From positions 1-18,135 of the forward strand of contig JAWAQR010000024.1 in the NCBI GenBank assembly GCA_038893835.1: 18,135 nucleotides of DNA. Reading direction: 5' to 3'. The position numbers and the translations under genes are program-made. Positions 14,146-15,892 of this stretch are shown piece after piece (the stretch's first letter is position 1; every line of letters starts with the position of its first letter). This DNA comes from Archaeoglobaceae archaeon. Lineage in GTDB: Archaea > Halobacteriota > Archaeoglobi > Archaeoglobales > Archaeoglobaceae. The notes under the pieces are model-generated. The model did not search any database. It had not been told where the DNA came from and saw only the letters and a program-made list of their open reading frames with translations.

Positions 14146-15201
14146 CTATGTATAAATCGAGATTATGTCTCCATCACTTAAGATATGATCCAGTCCAACT
14201 CTCTGGCCATCAAATTTCACCGATTTCCCCCAAACTCTTGCATACTTGAATTTTTCGACGAAATCGTTGTGTATTTTTCTACAAACATCTTCAACTCTCG
14301 CACCCTCTCTCAAAACCATTGGTTTCTCGCTTACTTTTTCTCCAGGAGGTTTTAAATAGACTTTTATGAATCTGAGCTTCCTGTAAATCTCCTCTTTCAG
14401 CAAACCCAGATTTATTCCTTTTTCAGCCGATATCTTTATCGCATCCTTCACTTCCACGTCCATTATGTCTATCTTGTTCACAACGGTTATCGATGGGACG
14501 TAAACACAGTTTCCGTTAAGCGCATCTATTAACCTTTCCACACTCAAATCTTCCCTTATAAGAACATCAGCGTTGTGGATCTTGTATTCCTTTAGAATTT
14601 CCGCTATTGTCCTTTCATCAAGGCTTAGAGGGACTGTAGAACTTATCTTTAAACCTCCACGATCCTTTTTCCTTATAACAATGTCGGGTGGATTCTGATC
14701 AAGCCTTATACCAGCTTCATAAAGTTCTTTCTTAACAACTTCAATTGAATCAAGCTTGAAAACATCTGCAACGATAACTATTAGATCTGCAATTCTGACA
14801 GCTGATAAAACTTCTTTTCCCCTTCCCTTTCCGCTAGCAGCCCCTTCAACGATGCCTGGCATGTCGATTATTTGAATTGTCGCATGTTTATACTCCAAAA
14901 TCCCAGGCACTGGCTTCTTTGTTGTGAAATCGTAATCAGCAACCTCGCTTTTTGCACCTGTCAAAGAGTTGAGCAAAGTGGACTTTCCCACCGAAGGAAA
15001 ACCAACCAGAGCTACAGTCGCGTCACCTTCCTTCTTTATCGAAAAAGTTTGCCTTACTCCCTTTCTTCTTTCTTTCTCCAACTCTTCCTTAAGCCTCGCA
15101 AGCTTTGCCTTTAGTCTGCCAATATGATGTTCAGTAGCCTTGTTGTATGGAGTCTTCCTGATTTCTTCTTCCAGTTGTTTAATCTGTTGAATTAAGTCCA
15201 C
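14146..15201 (-). CDS. DRG/Rbg-family GTPase (Obg superfamily) with TGS domain
   Basis: TPYNKATEHHIGRLKAKLA, GFPSVGKST, YDFTT, DMPG, GKGRG, NKID, and C-terminal TGS (VWGKSVKFDGQRVG). GTG start with TATA-like TTTTAATT at 15221-15228, so probably leaderless. Confidence 0.95.
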   Translation of the reverse strand: MDLIQQIKQLEEEIRKTPYNKATEHHIGRLKAKLARLKEELEKERRKGVRQTFSIKKEGDATVALVGFPSVGKSTLLNSLTGAKSEVADYDFTTKKPVPGILEYKHATIQIIDMPGIVEGAASGKGRGKEVLSAVRIADLIVIVADVFKLDSIEVVKKELYEAGIRLDQNPPDIVIRKKDRGGLKISSTVPLSLDERTIAEILKEYKIHNADVLIREDLSVERLIDALNGNCVYVPSITVVNKIDIMDVEVKDAIKISAEKGINLGLLKEEIYRKLRFIKVYLKPPGEKVSEKPMVLREGARVEDVCRKIHNDFVEKFKYARVWGKSVKFDGQRVGLDHILSDGDIISIYT

Positions 15202-15267
15202 GAAATCTGTTCGCGATTCGAATTAAAAGCTCAACGCAGATCGAAAAGTCATAGTTGTGATTTTCAT

Positions 15268-15363
15268 CACTGTACCCTGAGGGAGCGAAAGGACTTTCAT
15301 CGCTCGCAGGTGCGAATGCTCAATCCCGCAGCTGATCAGGGCCCTCGCAAAGCTCATCGGTAT
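15268..15363 (-). ncRNA. Putative box H/ACA pseudouridylation guide RNA with K-turn and extra 5' K-loop
   Basis: GC-rich island (53/90 G+C over 15271-15360). Lower stem GCCCUGA (15342-15336)/UCAGGGU (15280-15274) is followed immediately by ACA (15273-15271). Internal pocket, upper stem with tandem GA/GA and GAU bulge, and its own BRE/TATA at 15381-15396. Confidence 0.72.
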
Positions 15364-15380
15364 CAAAATTTTGTGGTTCT

Positions 15381-15396
15381 TGTTTAAAAGCTTTTT
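15381..15396 (-). promoter_or_regulatory. BRE/TATA for the intergenic RNA
   Basis: Minus strand AAAAAG-CTTTTAAACA, about 20-25 nt upstream of the start of the GC-rich structured island. Confidence 0.6.
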
Positions 15397-15892
15397 AGCT
15401 TATAACAACTTTCTTAACCCCATCAACTTTAAGGATTTCCTCAACGACTTTTCCCGGTATCTTTGAATCCGTCACTATCACCATCTTCGATTCCACGCTC
15501 AATTCTGGATCTTCCGCGAGCAAATATCTGATCACAATCCCTTCCCTCGCCAATGCTGAAGTTACACCTGCTGCTATTCCCGCTTTGCTACTCTCAGCGT
15601 AAACTTCTAGAACGCCATAGCCCAGATATCTCGCAACTTCAGTAATGTCTGCAACTGGTCTCAGCTTTTCAAAAACTCTCCTTAACTCCTCATCGCTCTC
15701 TATATTCTGTATCGCAGCTATCACAACTTTTCTGTCAACTCCAATCGCTTCTCCTATTTTTGCCGGAACAAGCTCTATGTTTCCACAGTAAGCCTTTCCA
15801 TTCCTAACAGAAATCCCAAGCCTGAGGAATTCCCTTGCAACGGCTATCTGTGAAGGATACTTATCAAACTTCTCAACAACTTTTTGCCACAT
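15395..15892 (-). CDS. Archaeal ACT-domain protein, predicted regulator of amino-acid metabolism (COG2150-like)
   Basis: MW...FDKYPSQ..VA...LRLGISV, CGNIE, IGVDRKVV HTH-like N-terminus, and C-terminal ACT-like domain (GIAAGVT...EDPEL). Confidence 0.85.
   Translation of the reverse strand: MWQKVVEKFDKYPSQIAVAREFLRLGISVRNGKAYCGNIELVPAKIGEAIGVDRKVVIAAIQNIESDEELRRVFEKLRPVADITEVARYLGYGVLEVYAESSKAGIAAGVTSALAREGIVIRYLLAEDPELSVESKMVIVTDSKIPGKVVEEILKVDGVKKVVIS

Follow-up and report, generated by a model that had tools for sequence, protein, structure and literature searches.

Locus and hairpin architecture

The window, an 18,135-nt stretch of DNA from an Archaeoglobaceae archaeon (assembly GCA_038893835.1, contig JAWAQR010000024.1), carries on its minus strand a hairpin at 15342-15271, in which a two-sided pocket separates a lower stem from an upper stem of 6 bp; the hairpin also has a K-turn and an ACA. 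A 47-codon ORF (15223-15366) overlaps this element, and an ACT-domain gene ends upstream of it. Read 5' to 3' along the minus strand, the features are as follows.

15382-15396, minus: promoter-like element, purine-rich at 15396-15390 and followed by the TATA-like TTTTAAAC at 15389-15382
15343-15361, minus: 5'-terminal K-turn-like module A-CC-GAU-GA-[GCUUUGC]-GA-GG
15337-15342, minus: 5' strand of lower stem H1, GCCCUG, paired with 15279-15274
15328-15336, minus: 5' guide AUCAGCUGC on the 5' side of the pocket, with a conserved core CAGCYGC
15322-15327, minus: 5' strand of upper stem H2, GGGAUU, forming six pairs with 15295-15290
15297-15321, minus: apical K-turn and cap, laid out as in the Rfam Pab160 consensus, with GA (15321-15320), a 2-bp stem GC/GC (15319-15318 with 15303-15302), the apical hairpin CGC-ACCU-GCG, a 3-nt bulge GAU (15301-15299) and a second GA (15298-15297)
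15290-15296, minus: unpaired A15296, then the 3' strand of H2, AGUCCU, as placed by the alignment of 16 sequences
15280-15289, minus: 3' guide, made up of UUCGCUCCC and one variable base, on the 3' side of the pocket, with C15287 14 nt from the ACA
15274-15279, minus: 3' strand of H1, CAGGGU, paired with the GCCCUG strand
15271-15273, minus: ACA box, invariant in 16/16 sequences, where similarity to relatives stops
15244-15247, minus: first run of four Ts after the ACA, a possible archaeal terminator

The initial annotation had read the minus strand from 15342 to 15268 as an unannotated box H/ACA guide RNA, and its parse matches the sequence letter for letter. It placed the ACA directly after the basal stem with the 3' guide 14 nt ahead, and the distance from C15287 to the first A of the ACA is indeed 14 nt. 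Its basal stem of 7 bp is one pair too generous: six pairs are conserved, but the seventh (A-U) can form in only 7/16 sequences.

Published descriptions of archaeal H/ACA RNAs place a K-turn or K-loop above the pocket at a distance of 5-6 bp and an ACA 14-15 nt from the target (PMC2377435, PMC7991803), with an H2 of 5-6 bp that contains at most one bulged nucleotide (Muller 2008, PMC2377435). In the present hairpin, H2 has 6 bp and one additional nucleotide, a K-turn follows above it, the ACA comes straight after H1, and the top of the pocket lies 14-15 nt from the ACA.

Conservation and folding

A DNA search of 41 genomes, the host and 40 relatives, detected the element in the host and in 14/19 genomes of the same genus, and in none of the 21 genomes of other genera. 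Within the class, the family was detected in this one genus only, and searches of 17-20 other genera did not find it. DNA matches stop with the last A of the ACA (query base 124-126).

In an alignment of 16 sequences from the host and the 14 congeneric genomes, 98.4% of 320 pair cells hold standard pairs, versus 33-50% when the partners are slid by one to three columns, and RNAalifold independently finds identical stems. The six pairs of H1 are held in 99% of cells, the closing pair being G-U in 9/16 and G-C in 7/16 sequences. H2 is paired in 100% of cells, and its top pair covaries (U-A in 8, U.G in 5, G.U in 2 and G-C in 1). Both GA pairs and both stems of the apical K-turn are invariant in 16/16 sequences, while the first bulge base (G, U or A) and the apical loop vary. 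UUCGCUCCC is invariant in all 16 sequences of the genus and also in 10 Thermococcaceae homologues. The Y position of the 5' guide is U in eight sequences and C in the other eight, both of which are compatible with a G partner.

Covariation, which the initial annotation had suggested as a check, gives a divided result. The stems and the ACA are kept, but only 1/20 pairs has changed on both sides, a count that 254/500 shuffles reach; the signal is thin because the sequences are at least 80% alike. Thermodynamics alone do not mark the region either: the MFE z-score is -0.48, 61/200 shuffles fold equally well or better, and the MFE fold differs from the H/ACA fold. Nonetheless, the conserved stems, K-turn and ACA support the original assignment, and the hairpin is very probably an archaeal box H/ACA guide sRNA that had escaped annotation.

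Putative signals for transcription

In 15/16 homologous loci, CCGAUGA is preceded at a distance of 24-28 nt by a T[TA]AA core. In the host, the purine-rich stretch, which overlaps the stop codon of the ACT-domain gene, and the TATA-like element after it would form a putative archaeal BRE/TATA. A run of at least four Ts follows within 24 nt of the ACA in 15/16 loci (+24 in the host, +1 to +19 in the other loci). This arrangement suggests a transcript that starts near A15361, and hence an independently transcribed, single-hairpin sRNA gene that would run roughly from A15361 to A15271 on the minus strand, or ~90 nt. A near-identical contig and a relative's copy of the element are present in a metatranscriptome, as assembled contigs only; RNA run X12 yielded no match.

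The sequence GUGAUGA just beyond the ACA (15270-15264) was considered as part of a C/D sRNA and rejected. No CUGA D box precedes the start of the DRG gene, the sequence is not conserved in relatives, and the best C/D match in Rfam reaches 16.8 bits, where the threshold is 40.

Probable relationship to Pf9/Pab160

An Rfam scan, also suggested in the initial annotation, returns a full-length match to RF02796 (Pab160), with model positions 1-68 aligned over 15271-15342, although its score of 25.3 bits (E 0.044) is below the gathering threshold of 47.4 bits, and a gathering-level scan of the window is empty. In whole-genome scans the same locus is the RF02796 match in eight genomes of the genus, at 24.2-30.9 bits. 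A pattern that combines the K-turn, 3' guide and ACA occurs at 27 places in 185,579 species genomes: 10 are in Thermococcus or other Thermococcaceae, 14 are of the Archaeoglobaceae type, and 3 are bacterial. Between the thermococcal and archaeoglobal clades the hairpins are 53-68% identical, while UUCGCUCCC is identical. These similarities point to a homologue of Pf9/Pab160, which we consider probable. The initial annotation had named "Pf9/Pab21" as the relevant RNA; Pf9 was the right name, but its P. abyssi counterpart is Pab160, and Pab21 corresponds to Pf1 in the account of Muller (2008, PMC2377435). If the homology is correct, the Pf9/Pab160 family extends beyond Thermococcales and Methanocaldococcus.

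A K-turn-like module at the 5' end

Immediately 5' of the lower stem, and upstream of the region covered by the initial annotation, which missed it, is a second conserved module. Its CCGAUGA and GAGG segments are invariant in 16/16 sequences and are separated by 6-10 nt that differ in both sequence and length. The sequence-level features of a K-turn are present, namely a 2-bp CC/GG stem, a 3-nt GAU bulge, GA/GA segments with the potential for two sheared G.A pairs, and a small stem-loop that closes the module and whose pairs covary. Among the 15 distinct variants, nine have G-C as the first closing pair, three A-U and three A.C; the second is G-C in five, C-G in four, A-U in one and unpaired in five. 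RNAalifold pairs C1 with G22 and C2 with G21 of the module. The module was not found in the 10 Thermococcaceae homologues.

The balance of these features tips slightly toward a working K-turn. The genus-specific module is probably another L7Ae site, and might protect the RNA or aid assembly of the particle; if real, it would be a simple case of an L7Ae site added to an H/ACA RNA. We also considered CCGAUGA...GAGG as a general 5' motif of host sRNAs, but the genome contains four matches versus ~2 expected, and only this one lies behind a promoter-like box.

Candidate rRNA targets

The 5' guide is complementary both to 16S positions 905-910 (6 bp) and to 23S positions 2684-2691 (8 bp). No rRNA site satisfies all archaeal pairing rules: the 16S site has a C x C mismatch and the 23S site has five unpaired bases.

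The 16S site is U904 in the host, equivalent to E. coli U950. Pab160/Pf9 is reported to make a pseudouridine at position 922 in P. abyssi, numbered 910 in P. furiosus (PMC2377435); in 4/6 Thermococcaceae loci the U falls at position 910. The initial annotation had proposed this target, and the site is indeed the validated one of Pf9, but the pairing that it drew, to GGAGCG-U-G-CGGUU, is to the Thermococcaceae sequence (34 matches in 33/41 genomes, all with G) and not to that of the host. This count covers the family, as the five Thermococcus MAGs identified through their loci contained no 16S gene. It had also warned that a variant 16S might weaken the pairing, a concern borne out by the host gene. 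The host reads GGAGCC, as do 8/8 16S genes of the genus and all 34 matching genomes among 96 in the class, so that a C x C mismatch adjoins the target U. The pairing at U904 consists of 5 + 6 bp with two nucleotides unpaired and the mismatch directly 5' of the U, and none of the 16 guides compensates for it. Pairs adjoining the target were found to be critical in yeast (PMC6800473). Ranked by helix energy, U904 is 5th of 697 rRNA uridines and comes first among the 18 sites whose 3'-guide helix is strong, while two other scorings place it outside the top 40 and at 317th-356th of 1394. The chance that U904 is a substrate appears roughly even.

Pairing the pocket against the host rRNAs, another proposed check, thus gives the 16S site an imperfect match and also brings out a better-paired rival that had been missed. 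At 23S U2679, 7 + 8 bp form without interruption, with five nucleotides (UUUGG) unpaired between the helices. Under a no-mismatch model this site comes first, at 13.5 versus 10.0 for the runner-up. It was identified post hoc, and 9/1000 shuffles of the host-type guide and 16/1000 of the relative-type guide reach its score. We know of no pseudouridine reported at this position. Genomes of the genus provide some additional clues. G005 alone has U at the last base of the 5' guide, and its 23S has A opposite; G002 has C in place of U2679 and lacks the sRNA; and in G001 and G013 position 2684 is A although the guide C is retained, giving a mismatch. An H/ACA particle of Haloferax volcanii, sR-h45, is described as tolerating up to four unpaired target bases (UVUN), as modifying the U in an 'NU' format less efficiently, and as depending more on the 3' side of the pocket (PMC7075261). 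For U2679, too, the likelihood of being a substrate seems evenly balanced.

Several guide bases appear suited to both sites by virtue of wobble pairing. G15286 (-13) could pair with C902 or U2677, U15284 (-11) with A900 or G2675, and G15332 of the 5' guide with U909 or C2688. Since these positions fit either site, dual targeting is possible, and that both U904 and U2679 are substrates is a tentative proposal that we consider less probable than either taken by itself. The fullest version of this idea, in which a guide with two K-turns uses one pocket for two rRNA targets, has wobble-capable bases wherever the targets differ and recruits a second L7Ae through its 5' K-turn, is more speculative still. 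If the RNA does have both substrates, U904 would be read over a mismatch and U2679 over a five-base linker, both of which are outside accepted pairing rules.

Alternative explanations

The guide might instead have been retargeted to 23S U2679 only, leaving the 16S complementarity as a relic of a Pf9/Pab160-like ancestor. This explanation draws on the unbroken helices and how rarely shuffled guides match them, on the presence of a 23S partner for each invariant base of the pocket, on the compensatory-looking change in G005 and the joint absence of the RNA and the U in G002, and on the poor conservation of pseudouridine sites between archaeal orders described by Muller (2008, PMC2377435). However, five or six nucleotides would remain unpaired between the helices, two wobble pairs persist in the 3'-guide helix that a dedicated guide would be expected to improve, and the mismatch in G001 and G013 is uncompensated. 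Loss of the ancestral target is a minority reading.

Somewhat less probable is the opposite simplification, in which 16S U904 is the single, ancestral target and the 23S complementarity is coincidental. A homologue's target at this site has been validated experimentally (PMC2377435), the 3' guide is the same in both clades, positions 905-910 continue to pair with six bases of the 5' guide, the site leads those with a strong 3'-guide helix, and G(-13) and U(-11) form Watson-Crick pairs with 16S but wobbles with 23S. Yet the C x C beside the U is uncompensated in every genome examined, the invariant C15334, C15281 and C15287 are left without partners at 16S, and the 5' guide departs from the AAACCGC of Thermococcus in a way that weakens 16S pairing.

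The RNA could also have the shape of an H/ACA RNA while having no modification target in this lineage, as an orphan, a relic, or a chaperone of rRNA folding that binds but does not modify. Neither candidate site is fully canonical, and a family detected in only one of the 21 genera in the class could have been acquired from elsewhere. On the other hand, the bases of the pocket are kept over 16 sequences whose loops and flanks vary, which argues for continuing selection on pairing and makes the absence of any target unlikely.

It is highly improbable that the element is something other than an H/ACA RNA, whether a structure in the 3' UTR or terminator of the ACT-domain gene, a regulatory leader bound by L7Ae, or the 47-codon ORF: the ACT-domain gene is directly upstream in 6/15 relatives' loci and the ORF does overlap the element, but the other 9/15 loci have a different gene context and their own TATA-like box, the ORF has no Pfam match and conservation ends inside it, at the ACA, and the element has all H/ACA hallmarks together with the match to Pab160 over the full length of the model.

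Other RNAs were evaluated as targets and set aside. The 5' end of the RNase P RNA (contig C15, about 28207) pairs with the pocket over 9 + 8 bp in the host, but was rejected since the site varies in 18 genomes of the genus (GAGCGG, GAGAGG, GAGUGG; GGGCGG, GGACGG) while the guide is invariant. A thermosome mRNA offers 10 + 9 bp, but there is no U between the helices, and this match to a coding repeat is attributed to chance; it serves as a gauge of how good chance pairing becomes across a genome. The initial annotation had also suggested pairing the pocket against the host tRNAs, among which the best of 43 pairs over only 5 + 5 bp. As a main target, 23S U2626 (E. coli C2575) has a mismatch inside the 3'-guide helix and a 5' guide out of register, and ranks 91-94 of 697; G003 and G019 have another H/ACA RNA that fits this site perfectly. 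At the 3' end of 16S (U1467/U1469) the 5' guide matches over 8 bp, but the helix with the 3' guide is weak and poorly positioned, and this site is unlikely. 23S U2631 (E. coli U2580, P. abyssi 2672) forms 4 bp only, at a distance of 13 nt, and Pab160 was inactive at P. abyssi 2672 according to Muller (2008, PMC2377435).

Host machinery and proposed function

The host genome encodes Nop10 (83.7 bits), TruB_N/Cbf5 (94.3 bits) and L7Ae (99.9 bits), and has a Gar1-like match below the cut-off (25.5 versus 29.3 bits). It also contains a second H/ACA sRNA, of the Pab40/HgcG type (90.5 bits against a threshold of 77; G000 contig C8, about 26227-26501), and hence uses H/ACA guides.

We suggest that L7Ae binds the apical K-turn, that Cbf5-Nop10-Gar1 binds the lower stem and ACA, and that the strands of the pocket pair with rRNA on either side of a uridine held ~15 nt from the ACA, which Cbf5 would convert to pseudouridine. 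The reading that we prefer as a whole, with a probability of about 0.8, is that the element is an independently transcribed H/ACA sRNA of ~90 nt, belongs to the Pf9/Pab160 lineage and has two fitting rRNA sites.

Such an RNA would leave the general picture of H/ACA function unchanged, but would add a previously unannotated guide to a little-studied, uncultured genus of hot-spring Archaeoglobaceae. It also offers a case from nature for gauging the strictness of archaeal H/ACA pairing rules, as the guide is invariant despite a mismatch beside the uridine of the ancestral target, and a second site fits better but has an oversized linker.

Comparison with known RNAs

Pf9/Pab160 RNAs of Pyrococcus and Thermococcus are the closest counterparts. 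They share with the new element a single hairpin, the apical layout GA-GC ... CGAGC-NNU-GA, and a 3' pocket strand that is identical (UUCGCUCCC) and lies at the same distance from the ACA. The four 5'-guide bases adjoining the upper stem are CCGC in Thermococcus and CYGC here, and in the CAGCCGC form 5/7 bases of the 5' guide are common to Pab160. The 5' guides as a whole differ (YCAGCYGC here, AAACCGC in Thermococcus), the lower stem is 6 bp rather than 9, the 5' K-turn-like module is extra, and the 16S base next to the target U is C in the host whereas it is G in Thermococcaceae.

The HgcG/Pab40/Afu4 RNA (Rfam RF00064) is of the same class and resides in the same genome, but is a triple hairpin that has other guides, exceeds its Rfam threshold and lacks a CCGAUGA module upstream. 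Pab21 (Pf1) is described as an H/ACA sRNA that occurs with and without an attached C/D box motif (PMC2377435), and is a precedent for a second L7Ae-type motif outside the hairpin. Compared with that description, the extra motif here is a K-turn with a small stem-loop, is located immediately 5' of the lower stem, and has no D box or guide region. Finally, sR-h45 shows that archaeal particles with an ACA box can tolerate atypical pairing, although its sequence is unrelated, it has two hairpins, and the five-nucleotide linker at U2679 exceeds the four reported as tested in archaea (PMC7075261).

Structure and genomic setting

An element on the minus strand, within the 193-nt gap that separates two minus-strand genes, is in all probability (about 0.9) an unannotated box H/ACA guide RNA. 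The initial annotation had proposed such an RNA, and the proposal is well supported by conserved stems, a conserved ACA box and a relationship to the Pab160 RNA. The minus-strand sequence that it parsed (15342-15268) is identical to that of the contig, and the 14-nt spacing that it gave between guide and ACA box is correct.

Features of the candidate sRNA and its neighbours
15395-15892, minus: ACT-domain gene, 165 codons (Pfam ACT, E 1.1e-07)
15361-15354, minus: A-CCGAUGA, conserved
Between CCGAUGA and GAGG, minus: variable segment, 6-10 nt
15346-15343, minus: GAGG, abutting the lower stem
15342-15337 with 15279-15274, minus: lower stem, GCCCUG with CAGGGU
15336-15328, minus: 5' pocket strand, AUCAGCUGC
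15327-15322 with 15295-15290, minus: upper stem, GGGAUU with AGUCCU
15321-15320 opposite 15301-15297, minus: apical K-turn, GA opposite GAU-GA, topped by a G-C stem of 2 bp and a small hairpin
15289-15281, minus: 3' pocket strand, UUCGCUCCC, with C15287 exactly 14 nt 5' of ACA
15273-15271, minus: ACA box
14146-15201, minus: DRG-type GTPase gene (domains MMR_HSR1, MMR_HSR1_Xtn and TGS)

These dimensions fit the rules derived experimentally in Pyrococcus abyssi, namely 5-6 bp in the upper stem, no more than one bulged base there, and an ACA-to-target distance of 14-15 nt (Muller et al. 2008, PMC2377435), and the K-turn-to-pocket spacing of 5-6 nt restated in a 2021 review (PMC7991803). Immediately after ACA, the host alone has a perfect C-box-like heptamer, GUGAUGA (15270-15264, minus), which could form a 4-bp hairpin with UCAC at 15260-15257; no D box was found for it, and the motif is not kept in relatives. 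Farther downstream, TTTTAATT at 15228-15221 (minus) precedes the GTG start codon of the DRG GTPase (15201) by ~20-27 nt, a position that suggests a leaderless or near-leaderless mRNA.

The host can presumably use an H/ACA guide, judging from its genes and from a second RNA. Its gene set includes those for Nop10 (83.7 bits), for a TruB_N/Cbf5 protein (94.3 bits, in a frame of 346 codons) and for L7Ae (99.9 bits), and a Gar1-like match falls under the cut-off (25.5 bits vs 29.3). A second H/ACA sRNA, with three hairpins, lies outside the window on host contig C8 (~26227-26501, plus strand; locus L268:128-402). With a score of 90.5 bits it exceeds the Rfam HgcG/Pab40 threshold of 77, and it probably lacks an annotation as well.

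Conservation and expression

The case for an H/ACA RNA is built on comparison, because predicted stability is uninformative and a crude H/ACA descriptor is unspecific. The minimum free energy (-28.3 kcal/mol, z-score -0.48) is equalled or exceeded by 61 of 200 shuffles and belongs to a structure that differs from the H/ACA fold, and the descriptor finds 16 matching places across the 1.17-Mb host genome.

A DNA search of 41 genomes (the host and 40 relatives) gave matches in the host, in 14 of the 19 other genomes of its genus, and in none of the 21 genomes of other genera. The matches stop at query base 124-126, which is the final A of ACA. The 16 homologous sequences have hairpin identities of at least 80%, and what varies among them is the apical loop, the bulge, the flanks and the bases next to the K-turn. 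One genome, G018, contributes two slightly different copies, at L017 (contig C2) and L018 (contig C222); its contamination is 4%, and the second copy may stem from another strain in the bin.

In the alignment of these 16 sequences, 98.4% of 320 pair cells hold standard pairs, compared with 33-50% when partners are slid by 1-3 columns, and RNAalifold recovers the same stems unprompted. The top pair of the upper stem varies (U-A 8, U.G 5, G.U 2, G-C 1), and three more pairs vary one-sidedly with pairing always retained. Of the conservation and covariation by which the initial annotation proposed to judge the element, the stems and ACA are thus kept, but there is little covariation, with two-sided change in only 1 of 20 pairs, a count reached by 254 of 500 shuffles.

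In 15 of 16 loci, the conserved 5' end is preceded by a TATA-like core at a distance of 24-28 nt, and in 15 of 16 at least four consecutive Ts follow within 24 nt of ACA. The immediate upstream neighbour is an ACT-domain gene in only 6 of the relatives' 15 loci, and the DRG gene adjoins the element in none of them. Since neighbouring genes change among relatives, the element travels as its own unit.

A run search located DNA of the stretch in hot-spring metagenomes, with a small share in one metatranscriptome. Two metatranscriptome contigs, which as assemblies give neither ends nor strand and may reflect DNA carry-over, cover the region: one of 579 nt, a relative's copy, aligns exactly over 15271-15352, and one of 222 nt is near-identical over 15325-15500.

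Relationship to Pf9 and Pab160

An Rfam scan of the window at gathering level gave no match. A permissive scan of 401 nt produced one relevant match, to Pab160 (RF02796), which is full-length (model 1-68 of 68 over 15271-15342, minus) and below threshold (25.3 bits against 47.4, E 0.044). Whole-genome scans with this model, run like the R1 search below with Infernal's stricter filters, found matches at E <= 0.1 in 8 of 96 genomes of the class, all in this genus and at the same locus. Their scores range from 24.2 to 30.9 bits, none above threshold; a control match in Methanocaldococcus jannaschii was above it. At E <= 1, nothing was detected in 37 genomes from 17 other genera of the family.

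A model (R1) built from the 16 homologous sequences matches the host and 14 of 19 other genus genomes at 91-110 bits. It also has two 33-bit matches to a different H/ACA RNA, in G003 and G019, and no match in the remaining 76 class genomes. The G003 and G019 hairpin (L037:1511-1582, plus; L038 ~1592-1521, minus) occurs in two genomes without the present sRNA. It shares the lower stem, differs by one base in the 3' guide (CGAUCCC), is without the 5' CCGAUGA module, and terminates in AUACA. Its guide is fully complementary to host-type 23S GGGAUCG, immediately 5' of U2626, and it may be a retargeted paralogue.

A pattern combining the shared K-turn, 3' guide and ACA was searched in one genome per species (185,579 species) and occurs in 27 places. 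Ten are labelled Thermococcus or Thermococcaceae; ten are labelled Archaeoglobaceae, Archaeoglobales or Archaeoglobi; four labelled 'uncultured archaeon' have the same Archaeoglobaceae-type sequence; and three are bacterial, about the number expected by chance according to our own arithmetic. Hairpins of the Thermococcus and Archaeoglobaceae clades are 53-68% identical, and UUCGCUCCC, the K-turn side CGAGC-NNU-GA and GGG-Y-ACA are common to both. The sRNA appears to belong to the Pf9/Pab160 lineage as a new member that scores below threshold and occurs in one genus of Archaeoglobaceae.

According to Muller et al. (PMC2377435), Pab160 of P. abyssi is the counterpart of P. furiosus Pf9 and acts at 16S position 922 (910 in P. 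furiosus), where pseudouridine was found in cellular rRNA and in vitro activity was strong; a table row there prints '23S rRNA 922*', and the running text has 16S. By the same paper, the initial annotation was right to name Pf9 but not Pab21, since Pab21 corresponds to Pf1.

Candidate rRNA targets

The 16S site named by the initial annotation is that of Pf9, but the GGAGCG in its pairing is the Thermococcaceae sequence, and the host has GGAGCC. Its concern that a host substitution might weaken the pairing was justified. Aligned to E. coli rrsH, host U904 corresponds to U950, which we take to lie in helix 30. In Thermococcaceae, GGAGCG-U-GCGGUUU (34 matches in 33 of 41 genomes) is fully complementary to the guides CGCUCC and AAACCG, and its target U is at position 910 in 4 of 6 loci, in agreement with the published Pf9 target. 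Archaeoglobi have GGAGCC-U-GCGGUUU, as read in the host, in eight of eight 16S genes from its genus, and in each of the 34 genomes (of 96) that hold the site. GGAGC (898-902) pairs with GCUCC, and GCGGUU (905-910) pairs with AGCYGC through one or two G.U pairs, leaving a mismatch of C903 with C15287 directly beside U904. None of 16 guides has the C-to-G change that would repair it.

In yeast, pairs flanking the target are critical (PMC6800473). In an archaeal system, modification is reported to persist, less efficiently, for a U in 'NU' format and to be possible for a paired U, and the 3' pocket side counts more (PMC7075261). By complementarity alone U904 is not outstanding: it is outside the top 40 in a crude count, and a scoring with an enforced wrong register placed it 317th-356th of 1394. 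Once the base after U may pair, as is also possible in Thermococcus, it is 5th among 697 rRNA uridines and, for both guide variants, 1st among the 18 sites whose 3'-guide helix is strong. U904 would be the ancestral target, weakened by the GGAGCC substitution, and the odds that it is still a substrate are roughly even.

The weakened 16S site competes with U2679 of 23S rRNA, the best match of our initial rRNA pairing scan, to which we assign about equal weight. In E. coli numbering, U2679 falls between G2627 and C2628, immediately 5' of the sarcin-ricin stem. GGGGGUG (2672-2678) forms 7 bp with CGCUCCC, ending beside U2679, and GCGGCUGA (2684-2691) forms 8 bp with UCAGCUGC, reaching the upper stem directly. 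All invariant pocket bases have partners at this site, even C15287, C15281 and C15334, which stay unpaired at 16S. Under a model allowing no junction mismatch and 1-5 unpaired bases, U2679 is the top rRNA site (13.5 vs 10.0 for the runner-up), a score attained by only 9 of 1000 shuffles that preserve the composition of the host guide strands, and by 16 of 1000 for the relative-type guide.

Among the 40 of 96 class genomes that hold the site, GGGGGUG-U varies only in G002, which has C in place of U2679 and also is without the sRNA. Position 2684 is A in three genomes: in G005 a U, unique to it, at the last 5'-guide base restores the pair, and G001 and G013 keep C, a mismatch. Against U2679, the site was identified post hoc, we know of no pseudouridine there, and the 3'-guide helix has two wobble pairs, where improvement would be expected were 23S the sole target. 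Also, the five unpaired bases between its helices (UUUGG) exceed the four reported to work in the archaeal study (PMC7075261).

Where the two targets differ, the guide base fits both partners: G at -13 (counted from ACA) can pair with C902 or U2677, U at -11 with A900 or G2675, and G15332 with U909 or C2688, whereas Thermococcus guides have at the last position an A that pairs with U only. Dual targeting would account for the invariance of all pocket bases; we consider it rather unlikely that both uridines are substrates.

Two other complementarities were rejected. In the host, the 5' end of the archaeal RNase P RNA (143.8 bits; contig C15 28212-27970, minus; L177:271-513) can pair with the two pocket strands over 9+8 bp, separated by a 6-nt gap, a match that is not conserved in relatives. 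Two thermosome-like gene copies (host C15:544-1049 and C33:1-510; 78% DNA identity, one at a contig end) both complement the pocket over 10+9 bp, a chance match.

A K-turn-like module at the 5' end

Conservation starts ~19 nt upstream of the hairpin, outside the interval initially annotated. This 5' module reads as a putative K-turn in which a CC/GG stem is followed by a GAU bulge, two facing GA dinucleotides and a short stem-loop that closes it, and its GAU-GA strand is identical to that of the apical K-turn. The 15 distinct variants have as their first closing pair G-C (9), A-U (3) or A.C (3), and as their second G-C (5), C-G (4), A-U (1) or no pair (5). The TATA-like box and the usual archaeal promoter spacing predict a transcription start at or next to A15361. 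CCGAUGA...GAGG occurs four times in the host genome against ~2 expected, with a promoter-like box only before this copy. We infer a putative second L7Ae site, which may shield the 5' end or help assembly.

A full-text literature search for H/ACA sRNAs with more than one K-turn gave only papers on RNase P, L7Ae leaders and C/D RNAs. A precedent of a kind is Pab21, which is described with or without a C/D box motif (Muller et al., PMC2377435). The ten Thermococcaceae homologues do not have the module, and their hairpin directly follows the promoter; the putative extra 5' K-turn is the most original feature of the sRNA.
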